NCBI GenBank assembly: GCA_050951325.1 | Contig: JBMNIW010000012.1 | Location: 352,001-416,000, forward strand | From: Clostridia bacterium | Lineage (GTDB): Bacteria; Bacillota; Clostridia; UBA1212; DUPL01 | DNA: 64,000 nt | Reading direction: 5' to 3' | In this document: positions 16,277-54,727 of the stretch, one piece after another | Numbering within the stretch: position 1 is the first letter of the stretch | How the letters are laid out: every line of letters starts with the position of its first letter | Notes under the pieces: model-generated | What the model saw: only the letters and a program-made list of their open reading frames with translations | What the model was told of the DNA's origin: nothing | The model's database searches: none | Translations under genes and position numbers: made by a program

Positions 16277-16429
16277 TCCTGTAATTTTTTATATATAATC
16301 TCATACAATAGCCTTTTTATCAAATATTTAATTTTACTCATTTACAATTCTGGATAATATGATATACTATTTAAGCTGGTTTAATAAATTAGCGAATTAA
16401 CATACTAAAGTTGAAGGGTTGTTATAATC

Positions 16430-17263: not shown

Positions 17264-17907
17264 TGAATTTTTCTTACTTGGTCAGCATCTTCGGCCAGCT
17301 ATCGGATGGTTTGAAGTTTACTGTTGGACTATTTTTCGTAACCATAATATTTTCAGTACCGCTGGGACTTGTATTGTCGTTTATTAGAGTCGGTAGTCAT
17401 AAAATTATCCAGCGTATTTTAGGGGGATATATCTGGCTTATGCGGGGTACCCCCCTTATACTTCAGCTGTATTTCTTTTATTACGGTCTATCATTGGTAA
17501 CGTCCATTCAGCTGAGCAGGTTTAATGCAGCGATAGTTGCTTTTATCCTAAACTATGCTGCATATTTTTGCGAAATATTCAGAGGTGGTCTGCTTGGTGT
17601 AAGCAAAGGCCAGTATGAGGCGGCAAAAGTTCTTGGGTTCAGTACATTACAGACAAATGTACGGATAGTTATTCCACAAATGCTGAGAATAACACTACCC
17701 TCCGTGGCAAATGAGTTTATAACTCTTGTAAAGGATACATCACTTATCACAGTACTAGCAATTGATGAAATACTTAACCTGGCAAAAAAGATAGTCAACA
17801 CGGATGTAAACATATCAGCTTATGCGGTTGTTGCAGTTTATTACTTGATTGCCACGTTTCTGTTAACAAAACTTTTTGAATACCTTGAGAAAAAGTTTGC
17901 ATATTAG
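17263..17907 (+). CDS. Amino-acid ABC transporter permease
   Basis: RGTPLILQL, AAYFCEIFRGG, GQYEAAKVLG, LVKDTSL. Confidence 0.95.
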   Translation: MNFSYLVSIFGQLSDGLKFTVGLFFVTIIFSVPLGLVLSFIRVGSHKIIQRILGGYIWLMRGTPLILQLYFFYYGLSLVTSIQLSRFNAAIVAFILNYAAYFCEIFRGGLLGVSKGQYEAAKVLGFSTLQTNVRIVIPQMLRITLPSVANEFITLVKDTSLITVLAIDEILNLAKKIVNTDVNISAYAVVAVYYLIATFLLTKLFEYLEKKFAY

Positions 17908-17923
17908 GAAGGAGGGATACATT

Positions 17924-18682
17924 ATGGTTGAAGGTGCAGTTATTAGTGTAAGAGGATTGAGCAAGAGTTTTGGCAAAACTAAAGTTTTGAATAATATAAA
18001 TTTTGATGTTTACAAAGGGGAAACCATAGCCATAATAGGTCCTTCCGGTGTAGGGAAAAGCACTATGCTGCGATGTCTCATTAACCTTGAGAAAGCAGAT
18101 GCAGGAAGTATTCTGATTGATGGCGAATATCTGGTGAGGGACGGACATTATGAAAATGAAAGGACTTGCAGGAAGATATGCTCCCAAATGGGCATGGTCT
18201 TTCAAAGTTTTCACCTGTTTCCACACCTTACAGTACTTGATAACTTAATATATGCTCCAAAGTATGTAAACCGGGAAGATGAGGCATCTGCCAAGAAAAG
18301 AGCAGACGAAATACTCAGAAAAGTAGGCCTTGCTGACAGAAAGGAATCCATGCCATCCCAGCTTTCAGGAGGACAGCAGCAGAGAATTGCTATAGCAAGA
18401 GCTTTAATGATGAATCCGGAGATTCTCCTATTTGACGAACCTACCTCATCCTTGGATCCTCTTTTAAAGAACGAAGTATTGTCTGTCATGAGGCAGCTTG
18501 CAGAAGAGAAGATGACGATGCTTGTAGTGACTCACGAAATGGGCTTTGCAAAAGAAGTGGCGGACAGAGTATTGTTTGTTTCTGAAGATGGAATTATTGC
18601 AGATGATTCACCAGATAAAATATTTAACTTGCCCTCTAATCCCATAATTAAAGAATTTATATGTAGCATAAAAGCCGTGTGA
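17924..18682 (+). CDS. Amino-acid ABC transporter ATP-binding protein (GlnQ family)
   Basis: GPSGVGKST, LSGGQQQR, LLFDEPTS, VVTHEMGFA; start moved to ATG after AGGAGG. Confidence 0.95.
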   Translation: MVEGAVISVRGLSKSFGKTKVLNNINFDVYKGETIAIIGPSGVGKSTMLRCLINLEKADAGSILIDGEYLVRDGHYENERTCRKICSQMGMVFQSFHLFPHLTVLDNLIYAPKYVNREDEASAKKRADEILRKVGLADRKESMPSQLSGGQQQRIAIARALMMNPEILLFDEPTSSLDPLLKNEVLSVMRQLAEEKMTMLVVTHEMGFAKEVADRVLFVSEDGIIADDSPDKIFNLPSNPIIKEFICSIKAV

Positions 18683-18697
18683 AAACACGGTCTTTTT
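18674..18697 (+). terminator. Intrinsic terminator of ABC operon
   Basis: CCGTGT-GAAA-ACACGG followed by T-tract. Confidence 0.7.
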
Positions 18698-18718
18698 ATT
18701 TCCGTAACTATTTTTCCA

Positions 18719-18775
18719 TTGACAGAATATAATTATGGTGTATAATAATATTACATATGAACAATTGTTCATATG
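18719..18775 (+). promoter_or_regulatory. sigma-A promoter with ArsR/SmtB-type operator
   Basis: TTGACA(18719)-16-TATAAT(18741); perfect 22-bp palindrome CATATGAACAATTGTTCATATG at 18754-18775 resembling SmtB/CzrA operators. Confidence 0.85.
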
Positions 18776-18799
18776 ATAAGATGACATAGAGGTGCTGAA

Positions 18800-19150
18800 A
18801 TGGATAATCCAACATGCAGCTGTTTTCTATTACATGAAGACATAGTAGAGAAAGCTAAAAAGGCTTTGCCTGATGAAAACAAATTGATGGATTTGGCTGA
18901 TTTGTTTAAAGTATTTGGTGATAGTACGAGAATAAAGATACTTTACTTGCTGTCGGTAAATGAGATGTGCGTGTGTGACATTGCAAACCTCATAGGACTA
19001 AGCCAGTCTGCTATTTCTCACCAGCTTAGGGTTTTAAAGCAGGCAAAGCTTGTGAAATACAGAAGAGAGGGAAAAGTAGTTTTCTATTCTCTGGATGACG
19101 ACCACGTAAGTTCAATAATAAAACAAGGTTTGGAACATATAAACGAATAG
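18800..19150 (+). CDS. ArsR/SmtB (CadC-like) metal-sensing repressor
   Basis: N-terminal CSC, FKVFGDSTRIKIL, EMCVCD, SQSAISHQLR, alpha5 DDH...EH. Confidence 0.93.
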   Translation: MDNPTCSCFLLHEDIVEKAKKALPDENKLMDLADLFKVFGDSTRIKILYLLSVNEMCVCDIANLIGLSQSAISHQLRVLKQAKLVKYRREGKVVFYSLDDDHVSSIIKQGLEHINE

Positions 19151-19165
19151 AGTGGAGGAAAGTTT

Positions 19166-19384
19166 ATGAGAAAGACACTGACTCTGCAAAATCTGGGATG
19201 TGCATCCTGTGCAGATAAAATGGAAAGAAGAATAAATAAAATAGATGGAGTTATATCTGCAAGCATCAGCTTTGCGGCACAAAAGTTGTTTTTGGAAGTT
19301 GAAGAAGGGAAGTTTGAAAAAATTGTAGAAAAGGCACAACAAGTATGCAGAAAGATAGAACCTGATTGCAGGATAGTATACTAA
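19166..19384 (+). CDS. Stand-alone heavy-metal-associated (HMA) domain protein
   Basis: LGCASCA metal-binding loop, 72 aa, between ArsR and P1B ATPase. Confidence 0.88.
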   Translation: MRKTLTLQNLGCASCADKMERRINKIDGVISASISFAAQKLFLEVEEGKFEKIVEKAQQVCRKIEPDCRIVY

Positions 19385-33948: not shown

Positions 33949-34147
33949 CTTCCAATTTTTTATAATGACTTAAGTTTACCATAATTTTATACCGCAAACA
34001 ATAGTAGTCTTCTGCTTTATATTCAAAAAGCCTTGTCTTTCGTATATAGTAAAGCAATGTGAATAAACAGGAAACATAATTAATATATTGACAAAATGTG
34101 TTGTATGAATATAATTATCTTAACAATTGTTAATGGAGGTTTTAAAT

Positions 34148-35110
34148 ATGTACAAGAGGTTATTTGCGTTTTGCGTTATCTTTGTAATGATTTTTTCACT
34201 AATGGCTGCAAACGCTGCAAAGCTTTCAGACCTTGATATGTCGAAGATAGAGCTTGTGAAAGAGTCTAAAATTGATGTGGAAAGCGTGTCGGTGGGTGCG
34301 GAATTCGGTAATCCACCAGCAGGATGGACATACCAGTTTGTGCTTGGTGAACAGCCAAAGATTGCAGAAGCGGATGGAAACAAGTATATTGCTTCAAATG
34401 GCTTCTGGCAGATGTTTCATGAACCAGTAGAAGAAAAGTACTACATGTTCTCTGTTGATGTCAAGGTATCAGGGAAACAAAACTTTGGTATTTTTGCAAG
34501 AGCCGGTAAAGAGAAGTTCCAATACGAGCTTAACATGTCAGACTTCTTTGAACAGGACAGATCCGGTGAGCATGATGGCCTTCAAGCACTTGGAGGAAGT
34601 GGAATGTATGTAAGGGTTGAAGGCAAAAAAGTTACTCTGTACATAAAGCTTTATGATGAGTCTCAGAAATGCGACATTAACAACAAGCTTTATGCCTTTG
34701 AGACAAATTATGATTTTTCAACCGGATTCCATACCATTACATTGGCTGATGATGGCAAAAACGTATATGTTGCTGTAGATGATGAAATTATTGCAAGAGT
34801 CAAGTTCTCAGATCCGAAGACTTATCCAATTGGTGAAGAGCAATACTATTCCAAGGTAGTTGTTTACGGTGGCGATGGCAGTGAGCTTGGCACTCATGAC
34901 AATGCATTGTTTGCCGTTAACAGCGTTGTAGCTATTGGTAACAGAAACAGTCCAACCAATTTTGACAATATCATTCTAAGGACATACAAGGACAAAGCTG
35001 ACAACCCACAGACATCTGATTCCGGTGTTGCTTTATTTGCTTTGACGGTTGCTTTTGGTATGGCAGTGGTTGTCTTTAAAGAAGAGGGTTTTTGCATAAG
35101 CCCGAGATGA
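34148..35110 (+). CDS. Secreted beta-rich surface protein with NPQTS sortase-like signal (unrecognised family, paralog 1)
   Basis: Signal peptide; NPQTSD then hydrophobic TM; shares motifs with 47540..48556 and 51048..52100; promoter TTGACA-16-TATAAT at 34088-34115. Confidence 0.7.
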   Translation: MYKRLFAFCVIFVMIFSLMAANAAKLSDLDMSKIELVKESKIDVESVSVGAEFGNPPAGWTYQFVLGEQPKIAEADGNKYIASNGFWQMFHEPVEEKYYMFSVDVKVSGKQNFGIFARAGKEKFQYELNMSDFFEQDRSGEHDGLQALGGSGMYVRVEGKKVTLYIKLYDESQKCDINNKLYAFETNYDFSTGFHTITLADDGKNVYVAVDDEIIARVKFSDPKTYPIGEEQYYSKVVVYGGDGSELGTHDNALFAVNSVVAIGNRNSPTNFDNIILRTYKDKADNPQTSDSGVALFALTVAFGMAVVVFKEEGFCISPR

Positions 35111-35128
35111 TAAAAGGACATAACATAC

Positions 35129-35164
35129 AAAGAAGGAAGAATACAAGAGCTTCCTTCTTTTTTT
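35129..35164 (+). terminator. Intrinsic terminator
   Basis: AAAGAAGGAAG...CTTCCTTCTTT plus T-tract. Confidence 0.7.
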
Positions 35165-35237
35165 GTGTCTTTACACCGTATTGACTTTATTCCAAACCAT
35201 TAGTATACTAACGGAAACAAGCATTTGGAGGTTTTTT

Positions 35238-36947
35238 ATGCAGATGGATATTGTGCCTTATGGTATACGTAAGAAGGAGATTTTTAAAAAAACGGAAGAA
35301 GACAAGAGAGTAAGACGCTTTATGGGTGTTCAAAAGGTTCTGTGGAAGTCAGAAGGAGACAAATGTCTTGTAACAGGCGAAAAAGTATTGCTGGAAGACA
35401 GGGATCCGCAGATTAATCTTGGTCAGACAGAGGCATGTGTGCTTGAGAACAATGGAGAAACAGCGAGCATACTTCTGGACTTTGGCGTAGAGTTTCATGG
35501 ATATGTAAAGTTGTTTGTATGGTCTGTCTCACCTGAAAAGGTAAGGCTTCGTATTCGTTTTGGTGAATCCGCAATGGAGGCTATGAGTGACCTAGGTGGA
35601 GAAAAGAATGCCACCAACGACCATATTAACAGGGATCAGATAATTGAAACTGGATTTTTGAGCATGCCTGAAATTGGACCTTCTGGATTCAGATTTTGCA
35701 GAATTGATTTGATTGATCCTAATACCAAAATATCATTTAAGACAGTAAAAGGTATTTTTACTTATAGAGAACTGGAGTACAAAGGCTCGTTCAGATGCAA
35801 CGATGAAAGACTGAATGAAATCTGGGGTGTTGGAGCATACACCGTTCATCTCAACATGCAGGAATATGTATGGGATGGAATCAAGAGAGATAGACTGGTA
35901 TGGATTGGAGATATGCATCCCGAAACATCCACAATTCAGGCTGTTTTTGGATATGATGAATCTGTACCAAAGAGCCTTGACCTTGCAAGAGATGAAACTC
36001 CCCTACCCGGATTTATGAGTGGCATATCTTCATACTCTTTGTGGTGGGTTCTGATTCACCATGGCTGGTACATGCAGAATGGAGATAAAGAGTATCTTGA
36101 AGAACAGAGGGATTATTTAAAGAGTCTTTTGATTCAGTTCAGCCAATATATTGATGAAGAAGGCAGAGAACAACTGCCCCCAACAAGATTTCTTGACTGG
36201 CCATCCCATGGAAATGATGAGGCTTTCCATGCAGGACTTCATTCGCTATTGCGCTTGAGCCTGTTAAGAGGAGCCGAGCTTCTTGAAGAGCTTGGTGAAA
36301 ACGAGACCGCAGCTATGTGCAGGGAAAGAGCTGACATACTTTTGAAACATGTTCCAGATCCAAACCACAACAAGCAGGCTGCAGCTTTGATGGCTCTAGC
36401 GGACATAGCGCCTGCAGAAGAGATGAATGATAAAGTTATCAAGGTTGGAGGAGCTAGAAATCTGTCCACTTTCTTTGGCTACTATATCCTACAGGCACAG
36501 GCGTTGGCAAATGACATGGTTGGCGCTCTTGACAATATTCGTACTTATTGGGGAGGAATGCTTGACAGAGGCGCTACAACATTTTGGGAAGACTTCAATA
36601 TTGAGTGGCTTGAGGGTTCGGGAAGAATTGACGAACTTGTTCCGGAAGGAGTAAAAGACCTGCATGGTGATTTTGGAAACTTCTGCTACAAGGGATTCAG
36701 GCATAGTTTATGTCATGGATGGGCTTCAGGTCCTACTGCTTTCATGTCAGGTTATGTACTTGGAATACAAGTATTAAAACCTGGATGCGAGGAAATTAGA
36801 ATAAAGCCTGACCTTGGTGATTTGGAATGGGCGGAAGGAACCTATCCTACACCAATGGGTATTATCTGGGTAAGACATGAAAAGAATCAGGATGGCACCA
36901 TAAAGACTGAATACAAGGTTCCTGAAGGAGTCAAGGTAGTTGAGTAA
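35238..36947 (+). CDS. Alpha-L-rhamnosidase-like, GH78
   Basis: LLDFG, RFGES, WDGIKRDRLVWIGD, GATTFWE, SLCHGWASGP, PTPMG; promoter TTGACT-17-TATACT at 35181-35209; start after GGAGG. Confidence 0.88.
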   Translation: MQMDIVPYGIRKKEIFKKTEEDKRVRRFMGVQKVLWKSEGDKCLVTGEKVLLEDRDPQINLGQTEACVLENNGETASILLDFGVEFHGYVKLFVWSVSPEKVRLRIRFGESAMEAMSDLGGEKNATNDHINRDQIIETGFLSMPEIGPSGFRFCRIDLIDPNTKISFKTVKGIFTYRELEYKGSFRCNDERLNEIWGVGAYTVHLNMQEYVWDGIKRDRLVWIGDMHPETSTIQAVFGYDESVPKSLDLARDETPLPGFMSGISSYSLWWVLIHHGWYMQNGDKEYLEEQRDYLKSLLIQFSQYIDEEGREQLPPTRFLDWPSHGNDEAFHAGLHSLLRLSLLRGAELLEELGENETAAMCRERADILLKHVPDPNHNKQAAALMALADIAPAEEMNDKVIKVGGARNLSTFFGYYILQAQALANDMVGALDNIRTYWGGMLDRGATTFWEDFNIEWLEGSGRIDELVPEGVKDLHGDFGNFCYKGFRHSLCHGWASGPTAFMSGYVLGIQVLKPGCEEIRIKPDLGDLEWAEGTYPTPMGIIWVRHEKNQDGTIKTEYKVPEGVKVVE

Positions 36948-41503: not shown

Positions 41504-42145
<642 letters not shown>

Positions 42146-42148
42146 AAT

Positions 42149-42175
42149 ATGATACCGGGAAACCGGTATCATTTT
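42149..42175. terminator. Terminator after upp
   Basis: ATGATACCGG-GAAA-CCGGTATCAT perfect stem. Confidence 0.8.
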
Positions 42176-42312: not shown

Positions 42313-43209
42313 TTAATGATTCTCTATTTCAACTTCAATACTTTCAAATATATCCACTATTTCCACTATTTTCTTTTTACTGAGCTCCTTTGTATTTTTA
42401 AATCCGTATTCCTGGTTTAAGGCATCATACTTGCCGCTTCCGAGTCTGTGGAAGGGCAGTATCGAAACCTTTGTAACACCCAGATTTTTAAGGGTTGTAT
42501 ATACGGTTCTCATTACTTCAACACTATCATTCACCTGCGGGATCAGAGGGATCCTTATTCTCACATCACAGCCCTTTGTAATCAGCTTTGCCAGGTTACT
42601 TATCACTAAATCATAATCACCAAACACATAATTATCATAAACATACCTGTCTCCCTTTATGTCATAGTAAAAGGTATCGGTATAGGGTATAACCTTCAGA
42701 AATTCAGCAAAAGGAACACAGCCTGCCGTATCAATGATCACATGGATATCCTTCTCCTTGCACATTTTGCTCAGTGCTTCCACAAAATCAGATTGAAGCA
42801 AAGGCTCTCCACCCGATATTGTAACTCCACCACCGGACTCCTGCATGTATTCATAATCCTTGTAGAGAGTATCAAACACTTCATCCACGGTCATGTATCT
42901 GCCTGAAAGTTTCAAAGCTTTTGTTGTACATGTCTTTTCACACATGCCACAAAAGTCACACTTGTCAACTTCCACAACATGTTCACCATCCTTAATAGAG
43001 TGAACACCTCTTGTGCAGACAATTTCACAAAGCCTACATTTTGCACATAGATTTTTATGAAACATCAGCCTTGGCTTTTGGGATATGGTCTCGGGATTAT
43101 GACACCAGGGGCACAAAAGATTGCACCCCTGCATAAACACAGTTGTCCTTATGCCCGGACCGTCTCCTAATGAAAAATGCTGTATATTGCTTATCAAACC
43201 CTTATCCAT
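42313..43209 (-). CDS. Glycyl-radical enzyme activating enzyme (radical SAM with ferredoxin insert)
   Basis: DGPGIRTTVF, CNLLCPWC (CxxxCxxC), CAKCRLCEIVC and CDFCGMCEKTC, SGGEP. Confidence 0.95.
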   Translation of the reverse strand: MDKGLISNIQHFSLGDGPGIRTTVFMQGCNLLCPWCHNPETISQKPRLMFHKNLCAKCRLCEIVCTRGVHSIKDGEHVVEVDKCDFCGMCEKTCTTKALKLSGRYMTVDEVFDTLYKDYEYMQESGGGVTISGGEPLLQSDFVEALSKMCKEKDIHVIIDTAGCVPFAEFLKVIPYTDTFYYDIKGDRYVYDNYVFGDYDLVISNLAKLITKGCDVRIRIPLIPQVNDSVEVMRTVYTTLKNLGVTKVSILPFHRLGSGKYDALNQEYGFKNTKELSKKKIVEIVDIFESIEVEIENH

Positions 43210-45364
43210 GTTCAGTCCTTCTTAATATGTCAAGCTTTACTTCGTTCGACAAAGAATTGTAGTATGCACTGAATCCCGACACCCTTACCACCAGATCAGT
43301 ATAATTCTCAGGATTCTTCATTGCATCAATAAGTATTTCTTTTGATACCGCATTTATCTGAATCTCCTGACCGCCATTCTTTAAATACACCTTTATCATG
43401 TCAAGCAGTTTCTTCCTTTTCACCGGATCCGTGAACATATTCCTTGTGTACTTCTGATTAACAACCGTTCCACAGGACACTTTGGTGTAATCCGGCTTGG
43501 TAAGGGACTTTAGAGCCAATGTAGGACCATGCACATCTCTTCCATATACGGGAGAGGCAGCATCACTAAGAGGTTCTCCATCCCTTCTTCCATCGGGAGT
43601 AGCTGCAATCTCCATACCAGCATATATATTACTAATATTTGCAGCAATGGCAATATAGAAGGCACCGCCATCATGGGTTTTGTATTTGGAGAATATCTCA
43701 TAATGCACATTTACGAACCACTTGGCGTATTTGTCTACAAAATCATCATCGTTTCCATATTTGGGAGCTGACAAAACCTTTGCCAAAACTTCTTCATATC
43801 CTTCAAAATTATTCAGTATTGCTTCTTTAAGAAGCGAAAGGTCAATCTCCCTTTTGTTGTAAACAAACATCTCAACAGCGGCCAAAGAGTCTGCAAAGGT
43901 TCCAATGCCCATGCATGCAGCACCATGGACAGACGGATACAAAGCTCCGCCATCATTTATGTCAAGACCTCTTTCAATACACGGATAGCAGAAACAGGAC
44001 AAAAACGGCTGCATGTAGTTGTATGTATTGTATCTTTCATTTTCATTCTTGAACATTCTGACATACATGGCCGCACCGTGTTCCAACTGCTTTCTCAATG
44101 CATGAAGAAAATCATCCATGGTCTTCAACTCGGAAACATCCCCCGTTGAAGGCCCAAGGCGCACGCCCGTATGCATGCACACCCCATTGTTAAGAACAAG
44201 CTCTATATACTTGGGTGAGTTGAATCTTCCATCCGACCAGGGCGGTTGTTTGCCTGGGATGAAGTTTTCTATACAGCCTACCATGCAGTAATCCCTTGCA
44301 TCTTCAAGGGAATATCCGTGCTTTAATAGTGCAGGGATATTTACATCATCGTTCATAAGAGCAGGATATCCGAGTCCTGTTCCTATGACCTTGAGACACT
44401 CATCAAGGAATTCATCGGGTATACCGCTGTATATTCTTGCAGACAGATTAGGTCCAGGGATATTGCATCTTTTTACTGCTTCAAGAATAACGTAGGAGAG
44501 TTCATTGACTCCGCCGCTCCCGTCTCTCTTTACTCCGCCTATTGCAATATTAACAACATCGTCTCCGCCGAAATATCTTACTTCCCCTATTTTATACAAA
44601 GTGCATGCAACCAGATCGATTGCTTCTTCTTTGCTTAATCTTTTTTCTACTATATCCTTAATATAGAAAGGATATAGATATTGATCCAGACGGCCGAGAG
44701 CCATTGCTCCTCTGCCTTCATAGAAAAATGCTATATATGTAAACCATACAAGCTGCAGAGCTTCCTGAAATGATGAAGGCTTCGCAAAGGATATCTTCCT
44801 GCAAACATCATGCACTTTCATAAGGCTTCTGTACTTTTCAGAATCCTCACTGAATTTCTTCGCTCTGTTCAAAGCTGCCTCTGCATATTGAAGGATCATT
44901 TGGCTAAAGGCCTTCATAGTAATTTCAGCAGATTCCAGAAAGACCATTTTCTTTTTGGAGTCCGGGTCATCCTTGTGAACAATCTTCGATTTTTCTATCT
45001 TCTCAAGAGTCCCCCCAATACCATCCGCAAGGAATGTATTGTAGTCAGGTGCATAATGATCCGCATTTGTTACAAAGGATCTTAAACCATAGCTTGCAAC
45101 AATACCTGTGCAGTGGTTCAGATAGGCCTGATCTATTTCGTCATCTATAAGGCCTCTGACTGTTCCTGCAATCAGATCATTGTCATATACATATTTTTTA
45201 TGTTTAGTAAACAGGGATGCAATCGCATAGGCCTTTGCTACAGGAACCTCACAGTCCAGGTGGTCTCTATAGCCTTCGTACATATATGCAAAGGTTACTT
45301 TTCTGGAGCTGTTGGGTTTCTTTTCTGCGATCTCCTGTTTCAGACAATCCAGTTTATTCGTCAC
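43202..45364 (-). CDS. Glycyl radical enzyme of unknown substrate (PFL2/dehydratase-like class)
   Basis: Gly loop LVVRVSGFSAY; Cys loop VGCIE; GRLDQYLYP, PKYGNDD, ATPDGR. Confidence 0.92.
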   Translation of the reverse strand: MTNKLDCLKQEIAEKKPNSSRKVTFAYMYEGYRDHLDCEVPVAKAYAIASLFTKHKKYVYDNDLIAGTVRGLIDDEIDQAYLNHCTGIVASYGLRSFVTNADHYAPDYNTFLADGIGGTLEKIEKSKIVHKDDPDSKKKMVFLESAEITMKAFSQMILQYAEAALNRAKKFSEDSEKYRSLMKVHDVCRKISFAKPSSFQEALQLVWFTYIAFFYEGRGAMALGRLDQYLYPFYIKDIVEKRLSKEEAIDLVACTLYKIGEVRYFGGDDVVNIAIGGVKRDGSGGVNELSYVILEAVKRCNIPGPNLSARIYSGIPDEFLDECLKVIGTGLGYPALMNDDVNIPALLKHGYSLEDARDYCMVGCIENFIPGKQPPWSDGRFNSPKYIELVLNNGVCMHTGVRLGPSTGDVSELKTMDDFLHALRKQLEHGAAMYVRMFKNENERYNTYNYMQPFLSCFCYPCIERGLDINDGGALYPSVHGAACMGIGTFADSLAAVEMFVYNKREIDLSLLKEAILNNFEGYEEVLAKVLSAPKYGNDDDFVDKYAKWFVNVHYEIFSKYKTHDGGAFYIAIAANISNIYAGMEIAATPDGRRDGEPLSDAASPVYGRDVHGPTLALKSLTKPDYTKVSCGTVVNQKYTRNMFTDPVKRKKLLDMIKVYLKNGGQEIQINAVSKEILIDAMKNPENYTDLVVRVSGFSAYYNSLSNEVKLDILRRTEHG

Positions 45365-45366
45365 TT

Positions 45367-46461
45367 TTATTCACCTACTAAAATGGTCTTTATATTCTTT
45401 GCAGCCTTAATATCCTCAAACGCTTCATTTACCTTACTTACCGGATATTCTGTTATCATCGAGTCAATAACAGGATGAAGTCCCGGATTTTCCTCAAGGA
45501 ATTCAAGATAGCTTATAACATCAGAAACGGAATACTGGGATGAGCCTATTATCTGAATAGCTTTAAATGTTATAAGTTCAGGATTAAACATAACACCGCC
45601 GCTTGCAGAATACTGTCCGGGTACTAAATATACGCCTCTGTTTCTGAGCATCTGTATACCCTGGGGCACTGCATGCACATTTCCGCTTGCTTCAAACACT
45701 AAATCAGCTCCGAGTCCGTCACTTATGCTTTTTATATATGCTATTACATCATCAAGTGAGTTAATATCAAGAGAAAATACTTTACTTACACCGAAGCTTC
45801 TTGCAATCTCTTCTCTTTTTTCATCCACAAATCCTGTTATTGCAATAACATGCTCAATACCCATAGCAACCAGATATCCTGCTGCAAACATACCAACAGG
45901 TCCTAATCCCTGTACTACGGCCACATTAACATTTTCCATGCTAACATTCGCACGTTTGCCTAAATTAAAAGCATGTATTGCAGTTGAACCTGCACAGGCA
46001 AATACACTTACAGTCTTAGGATCCAGACCCTTTGGTACTTTAATCAGGTTCTTTACAGGTGAATAGTTAACTTCAGCATAGCCACCCCAGAAATGAGGGC
46101 TTTCCTCAGGATCTCCGCCATTTGTAACACCCATATTGATGCAGTTTGCATCATCACTGGTTTTACAAAGCAGGCATTCACCACAGGGGCATGCAATGTT
46201 TACAATAACATTGTCGCCTGCACTAATACCATATTTATTGCTGTCTTCAGCTGATATCTCTTCTACTTTTCCAACATACTCATGTCCGATTATCTTAGGA
46301 GGGACAATCCCAAGCTTTCCTCTGTGTATGTGCATATCCGTGCCACATACTCCGCTTGCTAATATAGAAATCCTTGCATATCCCTTTGGTGGAGTCGTAA
46401 GCTCATACTCACGGATCTCAAAAGGTTCATTTACTCCTGTAAACACAGCTGCCTTTGCCAT
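45367..46461 (-). CDS. Zinc-dependent medium-chain dehydrogenase
   Basis: GVCGTDMH, GHE, structural Zn CGEC..C.......C, QGLGPVG. Confidence 0.92.
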   Translation of the reverse strand: MAKAAVFTGVNEPFEIREYELTTPPKGYARISILASGVCGTDMHIHRGKLGIVPPKIIGHEYVGKVEEISAEDSNKYGISAGDNVIVNIACPCGECLLCKTSDDANCINMGVTNGGDPEESPHFWGGYAEVNYSPVKNLIKVPKGLDPKTVSVFACAGSTAIHAFNLGKRANVSMENVNVAVVQGLGPVGMFAAGYLVAMGIEHVIAITGFVDEKREEIARSFGVSKVFSLDINSLDDVIAYIKSISDGLGADLVFEASGNVHAVPQGIQMLRNRGVYLVPGQYSASGGVMFNPELITFKAIQIIGSSQYSVSDVISYLEFLEENPGLHPVIDSMITEYPVSKVNEAFEDIKAAKNIKTILVGE

Positions 46462-46473
46462 ATTTTTTCTCCT

Positions 46474-47349
46474 TTATACTTTTATTTTATGAATCAGCTT
46501 ATATTCCTGGGTGCTGTAACCCGTGTATTTTTTAAATAAGCGGCTTAAGTAGGGCTCGTTATATAAGCCGACCTTTTCTCCTGCTTCTTTAAGTGACATA
46601 TTGTAAACCAGTATCATCTCCGCTACTCTTTTGATCCTGTAGCTGTTAATATATTCTACTACTGTTTTACCTGTAAAGATCTTGAATATCTTACACAGGT
46701 AGCCTGTTGATATACCGAGATAGGATGCAATATCATTTGTAGATATATTCTCCTTTATGTTCTCCGCAATATAACCGATGGCCTTCTTACTGTATAATGA
46801 ATATATTGGCATCGGGGTAAGGTCATACTTTAATCTTGCGATGCGTACTGATTCTGCGGTTATCATTGAAAAGAGGTTAAATAGTCCTGATATAAAGTAT
46901 GTTTTATCTGAATTTATATCTGTCTCAAATTCTTTTATAAGTTTTTTCATTGCAACGGTTATCTTTTCTACCTGCATACCGCTGGGCATTTCCGATGCAA
47001 CAATCAAAAACACTCCTGGCCGGTTATTTGCCTTACTTATTTCAATTACTTCATCCTCAGTGATCTGCTCAAGCTCATAGGGTACATTAACTGAAATAGT
47101 CGCATGACCATGTCCGGGATTATCCGAATATGCTTTAAGTGGCTTATTATGAGGTATAATATTTAATCCTCCTTCTTGGATTATATATGTATGATCCTCA
47201 TATTGAATATTCATTTTTCCTCTTTCACACAGAACAATTTCAAAGGCATTAGGTATTACACCAAAATTAAAGTTGTACCTGTCCGTTGAAAAGAAATGGG
47301 CAAATTCAATTAACGGTATATTCTTAAAAGTATATATATTAAAGTGCAT
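46474..47349 (-). CDS. AraC-family transcriptional regulator
   Basis: N-terminal cupin; C-terminal double HTH (GISTGYLCKIFK, YLSRLFKKYTG); promoter TTGATA-17-TATAAT on minus strand at 47412-47384. Confidence 0.92.
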   Translation of the reverse strand: MHFNIYTFKNIPLIEFAHFFSTDRYNFNFGVIPNAFEIVLCERGKMNIQYEDHTYIIQEGGLNIIPHNKPLKAYSDNPGHGHATISVNVPYELEQITEDEVIEISKANNRPGVFLIVASEMPSGMQVEKITVAMKKLIKEFETDINSDKTYFISGLFNLFSMITAESVRIARLKYDLTPMPIYSLYSKKAIGYIAENIKENISTNDIASYLGISTGYLCKIFKIFTGKTVVEYINSYRIKRVAEMILVYNMSLKEAGEKVGLYNEPYLSRLFKKYTGYSTQEYKLIHKIKV

Positions 47350-47489
47350 ACCTAAACGTCCCTCCTTGTTATTCTATAAGGCAATTATATCTTTTATCCC
47401 TTTTGCTATCAATGAACTATTTTAATTTATGTGCACAATTTTAATTCATTATGCCAATTTCAGTGAATAACTATACAACTTTTAAAAGC

Positions 47490-47523
47490 AAAAAAGCTAT
47501 ACACCTTTTTAGATGTATAGCTT
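47490..47523 (-). terminator. Terminator of the surface-protein operon
   Basis: AAGCTATACA/TGTATAGCTT stem with minus-strand U-tract. Confidence 0.7.
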
Positions 47524-47539
47524 CATTTTTTTTGTTCAG

Positions 47540-48556
47540 TTAAACATTGTATAATTTTTTCTTAAAAACAAGGCTCAATAAAGCTCCGGCTGTTAATAGG
47601 GCAAAAACACTGTACAAACTAGCATTATCTCCTGTTTCTGTATTCGGTTCAGTATATGCAGCATACTCGCGTAATGAAACGCTGTTAACAGCATAGTTGC
47701 TGATACGGAGTGCAATAAGGGGTACGCTGAAATCCTTGCTGAGAAGAACATTATCCACATTCCTCAGTACATTTCCTGCACTGTCTTTTACTACTACCGA
47801 TTTAAAGAACTTATTTGCACTTAAATCAGGATAAGTTGCTTCACCGGACATCTCAACTGATGCAAATTTCTGTTCATCAACAAAGAAATTTAAAACAGAT
47901 CCGTCATCGGTCATTGTGATCTTGTGATAAGCACTTCCGAAATCTACACCCTCAAGCTTTATATCGATCCTTTCATTAGCCAGTTTAGTTTCAAGGTTAT
48001 CTCTATAAACTTTAACATATATGCTAATAATGTCAGAACCCCAGCCTCCGGGTACAAGGAAAATCCCTGATGAACCCATATGTACGTTACTTGACCAGTC
48101 GGACAGATCGTGGGAGTAGAAGGCAATTACTTCTCCGTTACCTATTGTAAAGTGTTCTCCGGTAGTTCTTACAAACATCCCAAAGCACTGACCTGTACCT
48201 TTTCCTTCGATTTCAAATATGTATCTGTTAGTTAATTTGTACTTGGAAACCATCTGGGTAAAAGGACCAAAGTTTACAGCCTTTTGACCTCCGTCCATAA
48301 ATACTGTCATGTTATGAGTCGGTTCTCCGCTTCCTCTTTCCAATACCCAGTGGTCTTCGATGTTTGCCTGTCCAACAAGGCTTTCGCCGTCGGGCAGATC
48401 TTCAAAATCATCCATTAAAACATCGATACCCTTTGTTCCATTAATGAGTTCACCCCATGTTCCAAGATGAGTGTCCAGATCGCTTGCCTGTACGCTAAAA
48501 GTCATGGCTATCGATAGCATAAACACACTCACAATTGTAATTACTCGTTTACACAT
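47540..48556 (-). CDS. Secreted beta-rich surface protein with sortase-like PNTETG signal (paralog 2)
   Basis: Signal peptide (VQA); NTETGD, TM, KKK tail. Confidence 0.72.
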   Translation of the reverse strand: MCKRVITIVSVFMLSIAMTFSVQASDLDTHLGTWGELINGTKGIDVLMDDFEDLPDGESLVGQANIEDHWVLERGSGEPTHNMTVFMDGGQKAVNFGPFTQMVSKYKLTNRYIFEIEGKGTGQCFGMFVRTTGEHFTIGNGEVIAFYSHDLSDWSSNVHMGSSGIFLVPGGWGSDIISIYVKVYRDNLETKLANERIDIKLEGVDFGSAYHKITMTDDGSVLNFFVDEQKFASVEMSGEATYPDLSANKFFKSVVVKDSAGNVLRNVDNVLLSKDFSVPLIALRISNYAVNSVSLREYAAYTEPNTETGDNASLYSVFALLTAGALLSLVFKKKLYNV

Positions 48557-48590
48557 TGTTTTTCCTCCCGTTATTTAGTTATTTTCTATT

Positions 48591-51029
48591 TTACTTTTTC
48601 TTTTTTCTCCTAATTGTATCTGAGATCAATAATCCGATTGCACCGGCAAAAAGCAGTGAAGAAACCAGGATAACTATAAACATAGTAGATACCTGAAATG
48701 TGTGCTTTCCATTTGCAGGTGTGAATACAAAAGTAAATCTTCCGTCAGGTGCTGCTTCTCCGTCTGTATAGAAGGACAATATATCACCGTCACTGCAATT
48801 ATTATCCGCCCACTTAAAGTACAGATGGGGTTTGCCGCCCTCCTGACCAATGGCACTGCGCGGTACTGCTAATGTCATTACATTGTTTTTGATGTAATAT
48901 TTTGCTTTACCTGTTTCTTCCCAGTTCCAGCCTCCAGTACTTTTCACGATGGTGCTGTAACCATTTTCCGGGGAAGTTATATTCACTGCATAGTCAAAAC
49001 CTTCCCAGCTCTTATCCAGGCTCATGTTTTTCGTGCTAATGAATAAACGCATCCAGTCCGGATCTTTAGGATCAGTTAAATTATTTAAAGTCTCTACGTA
49101 GAAATATATGTAATCCTTATCATAAATCACTTTGGATACAACAACATCGTTACGAACACCTTTGTTTGTGTAGTGTGTATCTCCGTAGCCGTCTTCATCC
49201 CTGTCTTCAGCATATCCAACATAGTGGGTATATGCATAGGCTTTATTAAAAGCTTTTATGTTAGTTATATCTATTGTCTTGTATGTATATGTTATATCAG
49301 GTTTGCTTACACCTTTGTATTTTCTGATATTGGAGATCAGCTGATAATAGTAGTTATCCTTCAGATCACCTTTAGTCGGTTCAACATCCCTTGAATACTC
49401 ATCTGTAAATACGTCGGGGAAAGCATTTTCAGTATATCCCCAGTCTTCATGTCTGCTTGCCTGCCATTCATTCCATCCGGTAACAAATATGAGGTCAGGA
49501 TTTACTTCAATTGCATAATCCCATTGCTCCTGAAAGTTGATCCCATAGTATTTCGAGTTGGGATCTGTAGAGAAGCCGTTTATCATAGAAAAGCTTCTTC
49601 CATAGACATCTATACCATTCATTGCTGTACCGCCGTACAGGGCATTTGCATTCTGTGCAACTCCAACAGTGATCTGTTCAACAGTTCCGTCAGGTCTTAC
49701 ACCGTATTTGCACTGTGGATAAACGGATAACCATCCCCAGTAAGTGCTGTGGGCAGGCTTCGTTGTAAAGTATGACGGGTCACAGGGTCTGAAGGTAAAG
49801 AAATCAAGCATTTCTTTAAATAACGGATCAGACTGCTGACCCAGTATCTCGGGGTATGCCATAACAAGGGGCTTACCTTCCCAATAGAACCACAGGTCCT
49901 GGTAATTTCCACTCCTGTATATGTCAAGATAAAGGTTGTACATCATCTCAGCAGTTGCAACAAAAGGCGCAAAGTTCAGCATAAATGCTATTTTAGGAGT
50001 GTTGACACCTGCCTGCCTTGCTTCTGCAAAGGCTTCAAGCAATGTTGTATAACCACCGCGCCAGGTGTAGTTTGCGTTTGTACAGTCAAATACAATAACA
50101 TCAACACCTGCATTTGCAAGCATTTCAGCATGCTTACGGTATACATATTTATCTAAAGATGTGTAGTAACCGTATAGCGGTTCATCCCAGAAATATGCGG
50201 CTGCCTTTTGCTCATACCATATCCTGTGCTTATAGTCATTCTTAGCCTCAGGATACTGCTTCATCAGATTTGTTAAGTTGATGGGCATACCTTCTATTTC
50301 AAAGTAATCATGAGCGATCCAGTAGAACATAGCCACATATTTGTTTTTCTTGCTGCTACCTACAGCCTCATAATCCGGTAACTCTCTTCCCAGAGCATCG
50401 ATTGCATGCCATGTTTCCGGTTTTACATTACGTTGGTTGATCGGATGATCCTTCGGTAATTTTGGTTCCCTGGGATCACTGACCTTTTCCGGTTCCTTTT
50501 CTTTTGATAAAGGAGCAAGGCTAGTTGAAGGTTCACCGTCGTATGTTATCTTCATCGAGATATTTCCAAGTCCTTTATACCCATTCGTATAAGTTACTGT
50601 ATGCTCAATATGGGTCCTGGTCTGACTAACCCCTATCCTTCCTTTAACATAATATACAACTGCAAGATATTCACCTTTTTCGGCTTCAACATTAAGGTTC
50701 AGCCATCTGTTGCCTAATACATCTTTAAAATCCTCTACTGCAACCGGCGCTGAGGATACGGTCTTTGAATAGCTTTCGTCCCATTTATACAGGGCGATCC
50801 TGCAGTCCTTTGTTGCACCAAAAGTTGTTATGTACACACTTACACGGGTTAGTTTATCAGTTGCGTTGAACCTTGTTCCGGCAGATCCATTCTTCTCGAT
50901 ATTGAAGTCACTCTTATCTCCTGTTGTATTGTAGAGGTTTATTGTGCTTCCTGATTTTGAATATATGACAGAACAGGAAAGTGCAAGACCCATAATAACG
51001 AAAAGGAATATCAGATATCGTTTTCTCAT
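48591..51029 (-). CDS. Surface GH99/GH71-like glycoside hydrolase with extra N-terminal beta domain
   Basis: VAMFYWIAH, EPLYGYY, HAEMLANAGVD, FVTGWNEW, DEYSRDVEP; C-terminal TM plus RRKKKK. Confidence 0.65.
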   Translation of the reverse strand: MRKRYLIFLFVIMGLALSCSVIYSKSGSTINLYNTTGDKSDFNIEKNGSAGTRFNATDKLTRVSVYITTFGATKDCRIALYKWDESYSKTVSSAPVAVEDFKDVLGNRWLNLNVEAEKGEYLAVVYYVKGRIGVSQTRTHIEHTVTYTNGYKGLGNISMKITYDGEPSTSLAPLSKEKEPEKVSDPREPKLPKDHPINQRNVKPETWHAIDALGRELPDYEAVGSSKKNKYVAMFYWIAHDYFEIEGMPINLTNLMKQYPEAKNDYKHRIWYEQKAAAYFWDEPLYGYYTSLDKYVYRKHAEMLANAGVDVIVFDCTNANYTWRGGYTTLLEAFAEARQAGVNTPKIAFMLNFAPFVATAEMMYNLYLDIYRSGNYQDLWFYWEGKPLVMAYPEILGQQSDPLFKEMLDFFTFRPCDPSYFTTKPAHSTYWGWLSVYPQCKYGVRPDGTVEQITVGVAQNANALYGGTAMNGIDVYGRSFSMINGFSTDPNSKYYGINFQEQWDYAIEVNPDLIFVTGWNEWQASRHEDWGYTENAFPDVFTDEYSRDVEPTKGDLKDNYYYQLISNIRKYKGVSKPDITYTYKTIDITNIKAFNKAYAYTHYVGYAEDRDEDGYGDTHYTNKGVRNDVVVSKVIYDKDYIYFYVETLNNLTDPKDPDWMRLFISTKNMSLDKSWEGFDYAVNITSPENGYSTIVKSTGGWNWEETGKAKYYIKNNVMTLAVPRSAIGQEGGKPHLYFKWADNNCSDGDILSFYTDGEAAPDGRFTFVFTPANGKHTFQVSTMFIVILVSSLLFAGAIGLLISDTIRRKKKK

Positions 51030-51047
51030 TTGCTTCTCCGGTTTTTA

Positions 51048-52100
51048 TTATTTTTCTTTTGTTCTTCTTACGATTATAAATATTATTACACCTAAGGAAA
51101 CGGCTCCGACTGCTGCGAAGACAATTATCAGCGGATCAACAGAAGCTTTATCTGTATTATTAGTTCCGCTCTTTGTTGCTGTAGGATTTACCTTTGGAGT
51201 CGCAGTTTCTTCAGGAGCAGCAGTTGCCTCCGGTGTTGGTGTTGGATCCGGTTCTTCATATTCAAGGATAATGTTATCGACCTGAGTAATTGTTTCTCTG
51301 TTGCCGATTGCAATAGTGGATCCGTTAGATGATACTCTCGTATTTTCAACAGTATAAAGGACATTATCATCTTTATCCTTTACGGTTACTGTCTTGAAAT
51401 ATTCATCAGAATCGTTTGTATCAGTATCATATTTGATGCCTGTACCTGACATCTCAACTTTTGCGATCAGGGTGCTGTTTGCATAAATTTCAACTTTGCT
51501 TTCCCCGTCATCTACAAACTTCAGGTTTACAAAAGCACTTGCAGGAAACTCAAAAGGAATGTCTGTGGTCTTCTGAGTTATGGTCATTGCTTCTTCTGTG
51601 TATATTTTTGTTATTACTCTTATTACATTTGGCAATAAGGTAACTGCTATACCGCTTGCTCCGAGACCGCTTGGTCCTGAACCACCGTTTTGTGAATACC
51701 AGTCTGACTCATAAAAGGGTACTACACTATCACCGCTGAATACACCGTTATAGAACAAATTCTCAGGTCTTACCGCTCTTACAAAAATTGCGTGATTTTC
51801 GTTCAGGTCAGTCTTCTTAACATCAATGGAGAATGTATAGGGTCCTACTATAGGATTAATTAAGAAGCTATCTGAATACCCAGAATACTCCAGATACTGA
51901 TTATTTGCCTCACTGACTACTTTAATTTCACCTATCAGGCTTGATGTTTCAAACAGCTCATATAGTTCTGTATCAAGCATAGTAGTCCCTTCATTATCGC
52001 TTTCAAAGTCAAATTTCTCTTCTACTTTGATTCCAAATACATTTAAGCATAATGAAATATTAAGTAGTAGGATTACTGCTATTATCATTATTTTTTTCAC
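51048..52100 (-). CDS. Secreted beta-rich surface protein with PT-linker and C-terminal TM anchor (paralog 3)
   Basis: Signal peptide, GTG start after AGGAGG, EPDPTPTPEAT linker, TM, RRTKEK. Confidence 0.72.
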   Translation of the reverse strand: MKKIMIIAVILLLNISLCLNVFGIKVEEKFDFESDNEGTTMLDTELYELFETSSLIGEIKVVSEANNQYLEYSGYSDSFLINPIVGPYTFSIDVKKTDLNENHAIFVRAVRPENLFYNGVFSGDSVVPFYESDWYSQNGGSGPSGLGASGIAVTLLPNVIRVITKIYTEEAMTITQKTTDIPFEFPASAFVNLKFVDDGESKVEIYANSTLIAKVEMSGTGIKYDTDTNDSDEYFKTVTVKDKDDNVLYTVENTRVSSNGSTIAIGNRETITQVDNIILEYEEPDPTPTPEATAAPEETATPKVNPTATKSGTNNTDKASVDPLIIVFAAVGAVSLGVIIFIIVRRTKEK

Positions 52101-52288
52101 ACAAATAACCTCCTGTATGTTATTTAACTCGATATTATCATTGTACTTTAGTAATTAAATGCATTATTTTCACTTGCATGCACAATATTCACATGCTTTA
52201 TTAACAAACTGTTCACCAGGAACAAGGAACTAAATGAAAAATTATTGGAAGAATACCTCTAACGCCCTAAAATCAATTTATTTTATCA

Positions 52289-53044
52289 TTATTTGCTCAT
52301 ATCACTTAATGTATGATTTCCTGCTGCTCTTCCGGCAGTGGTACCTATGAGTTTCATGGCAGCGTTGTTATAATGGCCTACAGCTTCAGGATTGATCCAT
52401 TTTTCATCCAGTGAAAGTTCACGGGTTATATCGGTCAGGACTATAAAGTCAGGATCAATGTCAGGAAGATTCAGCTGTGCATTCATTATTACTTCATCAT
52501 ATTCTCTGCCCACATTATGTATGGCAAAATATCCGACGCAGATTATCATAAATTTATCTATCCCTATATCACGCTTCAGATTGTTTTTCAAACTTATCAT
52601 ACCTTCAATGTATGACACGCCGTCTGTTTTTGCCCAGGCATCACTTTCGCCCTGGAGCCATATGAAATACTTTCTGTCAACGTTACCGGCTTTTTTCATT
52701 GCAGCACGTATCTTTTCCAGCATCTTTCCGTAACGTCTTGCTCCGTCCGGATTATTGTCAAGCCACTGAGCAAGTATTGTTGCTCCTTTGGCTGTATGAA
52801 CAGCTAAGACTTCATTCCCGCAAATTTTTATATATTCATCACAGAAATACGGAACGAGTGATCCTCTGTTCAGATGGGATCTCAGTAACATATCCTCTAT
52901 ATCTTCTCCGACAGGGTTCTTAAGTTCTACAAGTTCATCTGTTAGCAGCCTGTATTCAACTGCTTTTTTTACTGCTTCATCACAAGGAACAGCTTCTGTC
53001 TGTCCCTGCATATTGCTTTGACCACTGAATATAAGTAAATCCAT
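52289..53044 (-). CDS. SGNH carbohydrate O-acetylesterase (SASA/CE6-like)
   Basis: FSGQSNMQG, WLQGESDA, C-terminal GHY; no signal peptide. Confidence 0.82.
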   Translation of the reverse strand: MDLLIFSGQSNMQGQTEAVPCDEAVKKAVEYRLLTDELVELKNPVGEDIEDMLLRSHLNRGSLVPYFCDEYIKICGNEVLAVHTAKGATILAQWLDNNPDGARRYGKMLEKIRAAMKKAGNVDRKYFIWLQGESDAWAKTDGVSYIEGMISLKNNLKRDIGIDKFMIICVGYFAIHNVGREYDEVIMNAQLNLPDIDPDFIVLTDITRELSLDEKWINPEAVGHYNNAAMKLIGTTAGRAAGNHTLSDMSK

Positions 53045-53460
53045 AACCTTAACTCCTTTTTATATATAAAATAGCGATGTGATTATATCAAGGCAGACAG
53101 GGTTGTCAATTGTCGATCTTAATTCATTTTACGGTTTTAATTTTCTACTTATATATATTGGCACCGCATATCCGATCTTCTCCAGATGCAAAATTAAACC
53201 ACCAAATGAGAAAAATTAAAAAGTGCTTTTTCAAGTTCGCCAGATTCATATGTATATATGCGTCTGTATATAAGCGCCTTTATAAAGAAAAAACCACCCA
53301 AAGGTGGCCTTGTAGTCGGCGATATTACATGTCGCTCAGGCAGGTGAAGCAAATGATAAAGAGAGGCAAGAAACAATTACATTCTTATATTGACTTTTTG
53401 CACAAAAGAAGCACATATAAGAAAAGGGCCGCACATTGGAACAATGCACCGCCCCTTTTC

Positions 53461-53809: not shown

Positions 53810-54727
53810 CTAGCTCCTTTCATTTTTCTCAATAAAATCTTTGAACTTCTTGTTCATTTCGCTGAAGTTGTTAAAAGTACGTTTAAACATATAATTGTTA
53901 TAAGCATTATACACTTTAGTATAGCTGCATTTCAAGAGTCCGGCGCATTTTCTAAACGAATTGCCCTTGCTGACGAGGGAAAAGACGATATACCCAAACA
54001 TATTTTCATCATTCAAGGACTTGGATAAGATTTTCTCGCGTGTCTTTGGGAACATTGAAAAGAGATTCTCCGGTAATTTGAAATAATCAGCTAGTATGGA
54101 ATTGATCAGCTTTTGATTAGGATCCTCTTCCATATTAATACTCTTTGACTCAGATAAAACTTCTTGATAATCGGGATATCCCCTGTTGAAAACAGCCTTT
54201 GCAAATTCGTATGGAGTCTTCCCGCAATTATAAACCATGTAGATTTCATCCTTTGAAATCAGGTCTCCGTATTCCCATTTGTCTGTCAGGAATGCTTTAA
54301 TTCCGCTCCATTGGTATGTAATACAATCTGCAAAGTCTTTCTTGCCATCAATGGCAATAGCAAAAAATGTGTTCATGAAATCGTCGACAGACCTTATCAT
54401 GCGAATTAACGCACTGTGCTCGGCAAAATTATCAATCATCGCCATAAAAACCGAGTAACTTGCAAAGAAAAGCCTAAGATCTTTTTGGATATTGCAAAGA
54501 GTGCAATTGCCTATAATCAGTTGTAACGAATCGTCTGAACAACTCACTGCATAAATCTTATAGCCTTTTTCTGCAAAATGCCTCCTCAAGGTTCTGAAAC
54601 AACGATGTTTTGAGTTGTTTCCTAAAAAGAGATCATCGCCTTGAAGTTTTACATGAAAGCCAAATTCAGGTATGTCCAGTTCACCGTCTAAAACATAATC
54701 AGAACAATACACTTTACTAATATCCAC
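53810..54727 (-). CDS. Degenerate REP-associated tyrosine transposase (Y1/RAYT)-like protein with C-terminal HTH
   Basis: FHVKLQG..LF...KGYKIYAV, ASYS, YQWS follow RAYT motif order, but HUH and catalytic Tyr are absent; intact ORF with AAGGAGG RBS. Confidence 0.55.
   Translation of the reverse strand: MDISKVYCSDYVLDGELDIPEFGFHVKLQGDDLFLGNNSKHRCFRTLRRHFAEKGYKIYAVSCSDDSLQLIIGNCTLCNIQKDLRLFFASYSVFMAMIDNFAEHSALIRMIRSVDDFMNTFFAIAIDGKKDFADCITYQWSGIKAFLTDKWEYGDLISKDEIYMVYNCGKTPYEFAKAVFNRGYPDYQEVLSESKSINMEEDPNQKLINSILADYFKLPENLFSMFPKTREKILSKSLNDENMFGYIVFSLVSKGNSFRKCAGLLKCSYTKVYNAYNNYMFKRTFNNFSEMNKKFKDFIEKNERS

Follow-up and report, generated by a model that had tools for sequence, protein, structure and literature searches.

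In glycyl radical enzyme (GRE) 1,2-propanediol dehydratase loci, which serve the use of fucose and rhamnose and are associated with microcompartments, a GRE eliminase takes up a diol derived from sugar, and reduction or oxidation of the aldehyde follows. A route from sugar to diol to GRE is already known for these two sugars. Gram-positive polysaccharide utilization loci consist of a regulator, a transporter and glycosidases. The YbiW/PflD 'anhydroglycolysis' GREs act on sugar derivatives and bring radical C–O chemistry into carbohydrate catabolism (PMC13450708). Here we describe a block of eight genes on the minus strand (42313-53044) of the window, by which we mean the whole 64,000-nucleotide stretch of Clostridia bacterium DNA that was analyzed (contig JBMNIW010000012.1). 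In this block a GRE, its activase, a dehydrogenase and an AraC-family regulator lie beside an esterase and a surface cassette of three genes, the largest of which encodes a barrel protein (big812). The block is probably a composite island of two modules that cooperate, and its set of families recurs at three further loci. As to the functional link between the GRE module and the surface cassette, we consider the case for and against it evenly balanced. An earlier note on this DNA knew of no described system joining these parts. With the fucose and rhamnose route in view the combination is less unprecedented than first thought, and among the titles listed by literature searches none concerned a GRE joined to GH99-like surface genes. 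The features of the block are, by position in the window:

53082-53109, minus strand: promoter-like site 5' of the esterase gene, TTGACA-16-TATAAT with TG, 12/12 matches
52289-53044, minus strand: SASA/SGNH O-acetylesterase, 251 aa; PF03629 75.1 bits (cut-off 24.8), E 8.3e-21
51048-52100, minus strand: surf350; signal peptide, ConA-like jelly roll, Pro/Thr linker, C-terminal membrane anchor
48591-51029, minus strand: big812; GH99-like barrel protein with signal peptide and membrane anchor
47540-48556, minus strand: surf338; surf350 paralogue of identical architecture
47493-47524, minus strand: intrinsic terminator, 14-bp stem and T run, 16 nt past the surf338 stop codon
47384-47412, minus strand: promoter-like site of the AraC-ADH-GRE-activase unit, TTGATA-17-TATAAT
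46474-47349, minus strand: AraC-family regulator (Pfam)
45367-46461, minus strand: Zn-dependent medium-chain alcohol/polyol dehydrogenase (ADH); Pfam ADH_N and ADH_zinc_N
43202-45364, minus strand: GRE, 720 aa; PFL-like 2.5e-140, Gly_radical 1.4e-25
42313-43209, minus strand: GRE activase; TIGR02494 296.6 bits vs cut-off 174
42149-42172, unstranded: two-way terminator between the activase gene and upp, predicted from sequence

All eight open reading frames (ORFs) have exactly the coordinates and the common strand first noted. They face upp (41516-42145, plus strand), which is convergent with the activase gene. Their identities also held, five by Pfam/NCBIfam and three by N- and C-terminal features and fold. 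The start of the activase gene overlaps the GRE stop by 8 bp, and housekeeping genes border the block: at one end recR, prfA, sua5 and a phosphatase gene, at the other uvrC and a P-type ATPase gene.

The evidence for a link comes from loci where a GRE module and a cassette with a homologue of big812 (the big family) adjoin. On contig C1 the same genome carries a second ADH-GRE-activase copy, with protein identities of 83%, 74% and 64%. DNA homology between window and C1 runs from ADH to activase only (79.6% over 3765 bp). The C1 operon has the order anchored 396-aa protein, 753-aa protein with two F5/8-type-C domains, UPF0047, ADH, GRE, activase, s276 (an anchored 276-aa protein), big815 (a big-family protein of 815 aa) and a PilZ protein. 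Its largest gap is 48 bp; the activase-s276 junction measures +5 bp and the s276-big815 junction -4 bp, and the operon has no convincing terminator inside it.

The other two loci, L047 and L049, lie in G033, a genome from another family of the same order. Its two GRE copies are 79% identical to each other and about 52% to those of this genome, which are 83% identical mutually; identities within each genome so far above those between them indicate a separate duplication of the GRE in each genome. In L049 a promoter is followed by an AraC orthologue, two surf-type genes and a big gene, then by a terminator with a 19-bp stem and by no predicted terminator before it. The direction of this unit is divergent from that of GRE-activase-ADH, and housekeeping genes border the island. 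In L047 a GRE-activase-ADH-SASA unit faces a unit encoding a lipoprotein, a member of the big family and an anchored version of the big N-domain, and an AraC orthologue follows, so that the locus holds all eight families of the window. The big genes adjoining the GRE modules of window and C1 are 39% identical and not sister copies; as the adjoining genes are not closest relatives, the pairings therefore arose separately. The joint chance that both GRE copies of a genome abut a cassette is about 0.001 per genome under a uniform model, for this genome as for G033.

The AraC-ADH-GRE-activase unit is a conserved, self-standing module. Its GRE shows the features of the superfamily, namely a PFL-like barrel, an RVSGF glycyl loop with Gly697 and a radical-SAM activase gene alongside, and the activase has the radical SAM CX3CX2C motif and two ferredoxin-like cluster motifs. 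According to a 2026 review, six GRE C–O eliminases are known, all with a CXE motif, and roles are given for Glu435 and His164 of glycerol dehydratase (GD) (PMC13450708). In GD this His donates a proton to the departing hydroxyl. In the window GRE, Cys364-Ile-Glu366 (CXE), His103 and Asp378 align with Cys433, Glu435, His164 and Asp447 of GD, and by CXE and His103 it is predicted to be of the C–O eliminase (dehydratase) type. The enzyme is compact, its orthologues having 716-734 aa, and it scores under all named equivalog cut-offs (TIGR01774 464 vs 678; HypD 416 vs 1100; CutC 404 vs 1050; HpfG 385 vs 1000). Likewise, every NCBIfam equivalog scores under its own cut-off with the ADH.

Three search rounds gave 42 loci of this GRE clade from other genomes (17 + 20 + 5). 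The sets of 17 and 20 had no overlap at >=98% identity and were therefore counted as distinct. ADH adjoins GRE in 30 of the 42 (8/17, 19/20 and 3/5). The window AraC clusters over its full length with the AraC of 10 of the 37 GRE loci clustered, and for the AraC proteins of L047 and L049 the best match in this genome is the window AraC, again full-length, whereas other paralogues match the helix-turn-helix region only. On these alignments the window AraC is orthologous to the regulator adjoining GRE modules in other genomes. A metagenome scan with AraC gave one contig of 1.5 kb, too short for synteny. The esterase has no signal peptide and shows the marks of SASA/SGNH enzymes, with 'SGQSNMQG' at residues 7-14 (the GQSN block with the catalytic Ser). 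It is single copy in the genome (one tblastn match), and in L017, L047 and L050 orthologues of 38-40% identity stand directly after the module's ADH; for these reasons it was assigned to the GRE module. In L003 a GDSL esterase lies between GRE and ADH.

Further neighbours of the GRE clade were seen. A subgroup (L005, L007, L008, L009, L011) has no ADH; its neighbours include a divergent nucleotidyltransferase-LbH protein of 837-940 aa, with GH31, GH106-like and GlgB genes nearby. On the other side of the GRE stands an unnamed protein of about 493 aa in L005, L009 and L011, and an unnamed 387-aa ORF on the opposite strand in L007 and L008. In L017, the GRE-activase-ADH-SASA genes are followed at 14993-19295 by a second AraC, two GFO/IDH/MocA oxidoreductases and a xylose-isomerase-like TIM barrel, a set typical of keto-sugar or inositol-type routes, and GFO-type genes recur in 4 loci. 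Nucleotide-salvage genes also recur beside the GRE module, with upp in the window and such genes at 7 other loci, mostly of one genus (L015, L055-L059, L062), of which 5 have a phosphoribosyltransferase and 6 a xanthine/uracil permease; L015 has a nucleoside hydrolase as well. These neighbours may point to the substrate or reflect a conserved synteny of housekeeping genes, and a nucleoside-sugar substrate is a lead only.

For the surface cassette, the earlier label 'surface protein' was borne out. surf350, big812 and surf338 each begin with a hydrophobic stretch resembling a signal peptide and finish with a hydrophobic helix and a basic tail, as read from the sequences and from terminal helices in the models. 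The model of big812, built with 43 homologues (pLDDT 87.8), has four parts: a beta-sandwich at the N-terminus (24-165), a (beta/alpha)8 barrel spanning about 200-575, a further sandwich at about 590-770 and, last, a helix. With VIA-align the barrel compares to GH99 endo-alpha-mannosidases with Z 18-19 (root-mean-square deviation 4.1-4.9 over 264-285 residues); Z is about 15 for GH71 and about 12 for other barrel glycosidases, and Foldseek relates the model to the GH99-type fold with E 5e-7. The modeled barrel places big812 in the GH99/GH71 fold group, at fold level only. By sequence, big812 is unmatched in Pfam (including PF16317 at E 0.01), NCBIfam and the PDB, as is the 43-sequence profile against the PDB, so that the name 'GH99-like' stands for the fold and fails for the sequence. 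The Pfam GH99 profile reaches seven big812 paralogues at 19-30 bits, under the cut-off of 33, and a true GH99 gene, sought as an alignment bridge, was found in none of 301 Bacillota genomes at E 1e-30. Language-model neighbours of big812 include clusters named GH99, which we regard as a lead only.

surf350 and surf338 likewise match no Pfam or NCBIfam family. The surf350 model (pLDDT 78) has a jelly roll that VIA-align relates with Z 13-15 to sialidase and galactocerebrosidase lectin domains, DUF1080, CBM66, GH16 and PL7. A full-library profile search gave 457 clusters of relatives in the representative library, and a word-index search one non-self match. surf338 and surf350 share 30% identity over 214 residues (BLASTP, E 2e-13). 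A public protein of 968 aa without a Pfam match (P0107) is a natural fusion: a ConA-like domain of surf type (residues 7-332, E 1.6e-50) adjoins a big-family region that is 48% identical to big812 residues 195-780. Dockerins are present in the homologues P0002 and P0102. The paralogy of surf350 and surf338, the fusion and the dockerin-bearing homologues together argue that the three genes therefore form one extracellular glycan-directed cassette. Elsewhere in the window a surf-family gene (34127-35110, plus strand) stands directly before a GH78-like alpha-L-rhamnosidase gene (35163-36947, plus strand), which suggests that the lectin-like family pairs with other glycosidase types too.

Several observations weigh against one system made of both modules, and they are gathered here. 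Firstly, the eight-gene block is three transcription units, not one: the esterase, the surface cassette and AraC-ADH-GRE-activase. The terminators and separate promoters of which the earlier note warned are present at the positions given in the list, and a terminator together with a separate promoter separates the surface cassette from the GRE unit. No operator common to the three upstream regions was found beyond shuffled controls; the best shared motif, AATGAATTAA, upstream of AraC and SASA, occurs in 6 windows vs a shuffle maximum of 7.

RNA data point the same way. These were assembled contigs from four digester metatranscriptome runs (X1-X4) of three studies; such contigs show neither expression level nor absence of read-through, and the libraries may contain carried-over DNA. 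The block is covered by contigs in all four runs. Contigs of the GRE unit end at 47362 and 47295; those of the surface cassette end at 47533 and 47480 towards the GRE unit and at 52133 and 52134 towards the esterase. These ends are weak hints of three units. None among the contigs listed for the four runs bridges 47363-47479, and none spans the SASA-surf350 junction. Summed contig depth, which ranks nothing, is 55-93 over the GRE unit vs 3-17 over the surface cassette in X1 and X2, and about equal over both in X3 and X4. The same runs gave two side observations. A 305-aa ORF at 53810-54727 (minus strand), with no Pfam/NCBIfam match, has the top summed contig depth of the examined stretch in X3 and X4; in X1 its depth is near 80, compared with up to 92 for the GRE unit. 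In addition, a contig in each run has an unattached end that departs from the window sequence shortly before 42794, within the activase gene, for which an assembly join with the paralogous C1 copy is a possible cause.

Secondly, Pfam scans found no transporter within or adjoining 42313-53044, nor in the C1 operon, L047 or L049. The caveat of the earlier note on this point was correct, and its term Gram-positive 'polysaccharide-utilisation locus' does not fit, as an enzyme-like protein and a regulator are present and the transporter is missing. Thirdly, the catalytic dyad of its fold relatives is not evident in big812. GH99 and GH71 have a common D/E-x-x-E dyad (PMC12394665). In big812, E521 is invariant in 43 sequences and lies in WNEW after a strand, and the residue at +3 is Ala (E521-W-Q-A524), the placement of the motif against GH99 being tentative. 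Among the 43 big-family sequences there is no invariant acidic pair with D/E-x-x-E spacing. As the dyad is not evident, catalysis by big812, if any, would not be a plain copy of that of GH99.

Fourthly, the big family is abundant. More than 5253 of 8000 candidates scored are members, all without a family name, and the 3.08-Mb genome has 49 such ORFs (about 1.7% of crude ORFs), including another copy in the window at 12550-14640 (plus strand). Among relatives in the order, 36 of the 39 searched hold matches, 1-30 each, and 3 none. Within three genes of the 49 big genes of this genome an AraC-like gene is found for 17 and a surf or s276 gene for 10. A GRE is nearby for 2, and 47 are without one. 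With 49 paralogues in a genome of this size, adjacency to a GRE alone is weak evidence; of 5-kb segments drawn at random from this genome, 4% have a big-family member within 1.3 kb and 23% within 9 kb. Among the 42 loci of other genomes, 40 have no cassette of surf or N-domain and big genes abutting the GRE module, and the 2 that do belong to G033. A big gene anywhere in the examined flanks was seen at 5 of the 42; for the 20-locus set this is 5 vs 1.9 expected (P 0.03). Order-wide, a big gene lies within 3.4 kb of the GRE in 4 of 27 loci vs 1.58 expected (P 0.07, under a uniform model, with a distance threshold chosen afterwards and related genomes that are not independent). The earlier idea that surface cassette and GRE form one system is partly supported: the predicted synteny exists at C1, L047 and L049 and is absent from most loci.

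A rival reading is that the block is a chance mosaic, in which a mobile, duplicating GRE trio lands beside abundant cassettes with which it has no functional relation. The abundance of big genes, the 40 loci with no abutting cassette, the weak order-wide excess, the signals and RNA contig breaks between the units, and the window/C1 homology that stops at the ADH and activase edges all fit it. What speaks against it is that both GRE copies abut a cassette in two genomes of different families, each at the low joint chance given above, and that the C1 junctions of 5 bp and -4 bp leave no room for separate signals. Moreover, the orthologue of the GRE-specific AraC heads the cassette in L049 with no predicted terminator between, and all eight families, the single-copy-type esterase among them, are found again in L047. 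We take a chance mosaic as a serious contender, though not the favoured one.

A second alternative is shared regulation without shared carbon flow, in which GRE and ADH act as a redox valve for a small diffusing diol (glycerol, 1,2-propanediol) in sugar fermentation and are co-switched with some glycan cassettes. The absence of a transporter from all four islands would fit a membrane-permeant substrate, the closest solved relative of the GRE is a glycerol dehydratase (5.5e-115), the pairing with ADH would meet the need of an aldehyde-reducing sink, and the GRE module stands alone in most genomes. Four GD residues which we take to be glycerol contacts are not kept in the window GRE: His281 and Tyr339 align with gaps, and Ser282 and Tyr640 are replaced by Ala. 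Together with the score well under the TIGR01774 cut-off and an in-operon sugar-type acetylesterase in four genomes, which is ill-suited to a plain diol, this makes the redox valve improbable.

We return to the reading of two cooperating modules, for which the substrates, the import step and the carbon flow common to both are what we infer. AraC would control the cytoplasmic Zn-ADH, the compact eliminase-type GRE and the activase, which the esterase would join. The surface cassette, with the sugar-binding-type sandwiches of big812 and two anchored ConA-like lectins, would bind and cut an extracellular glycan, and the fragments would enter by a transporter encoded elsewhere. The esterase would then strip O-acetyl groups from them; the glycan was earlier described as perhaps acetylated, the esterase being the one feature that points to it. 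The GRE would dehydrate a derived vicinal diol or polyol to a carbonyl compound, and the ADH would either reduce this product as an electron sink or make the GRE substrate.

A more specific version, which we propose tentatively and consider rather doubtful, is that the compact GRE trio serves as a catabolic plug-in that underwent separate duplications in two or more families of Clostridia from digesters and guts, with each copy wired to a different GH99-like cassette. These cassettes would release an unusual sugar, perhaps O-acetylated, deoxy or anhydro, that needs radical dehydration. If so, there would be a new GRE-dependent sugar pathway and a first function for a glycosidase-like family of thousands. 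The GRE clade is unstudied and compact, occurs in many uncultured gut and digester Clostridia and matches none of the six known C–O eliminases, and the GH99-like family, with more than 5000 members and no Pfam model, is unstudied as well. If the link between them is true, each gives a handle on the substrate of the other, and radical chemistry would join surface glycan breakdown in anaerobic digesters, whose RNA libraries hold these genes.

Compared with known systems, the block resembles Gram-positive polysaccharide utilization loci in having an AraC-type regulator beside secreted or anchored glycan-active proteins and differs in that the block and its three sister loci are without a transporter gene. 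The propanediol dehydratase of Roseburia inulinivorans (PDB 5I2A) is a relative of the window GRE (E 1.8e-99) from a different clade. A further resemblance to the propanediol-type loci lies in the GH106-like, rhamnosidase-type genes near this GRE clade in L007, L008, L009 and L017. Unlike in those loci, no microcompartment shell genes were seen in Pfam scans of the window, C1, L047 and L049, and a surface GH99-like cassette, which stands beside the window GRE, is not known to be part of them. YbiW/PflD are relatives as well (E 1e-86 to 1e-87), but they are isomerases with phosphorylated 1,5-anhydro-alditol substrates and are not known to be tied to surface glycosidases.

The closest solved relative is the B12-independent glycerol dehydratase DhaB1 of Clostridium butyricum with its activase DhaB2 (PDB 1R8W/1R9D; E 5.5e-115). 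Common to it and the window system are CXE, the equivalents of His164 and Asp447, the glycyl loop and additional Fe-S motifs in the activase. It differs in a GRE that is about 60-70 residues shorter at the N-terminus (720 vs 787 aa) and under the TIGR01774 cut-off, and in its pairing with a Zn-ADH and AraC. On the side of the cassette, big812 has the barrel fold in common with the endo-alpha-mannosidases/mannanases of GH99 (Bacteroides BT3990/BxGH99, human MANEA) and with the alpha-1,3-glucanases of GH71, and a beta-sandwich after the barrel with GH71 (PMC12394665). Unlike both families, big812 has an extra N-terminal sandwich and a membrane anchor, and its own family is present in 3-49 copies per genome.

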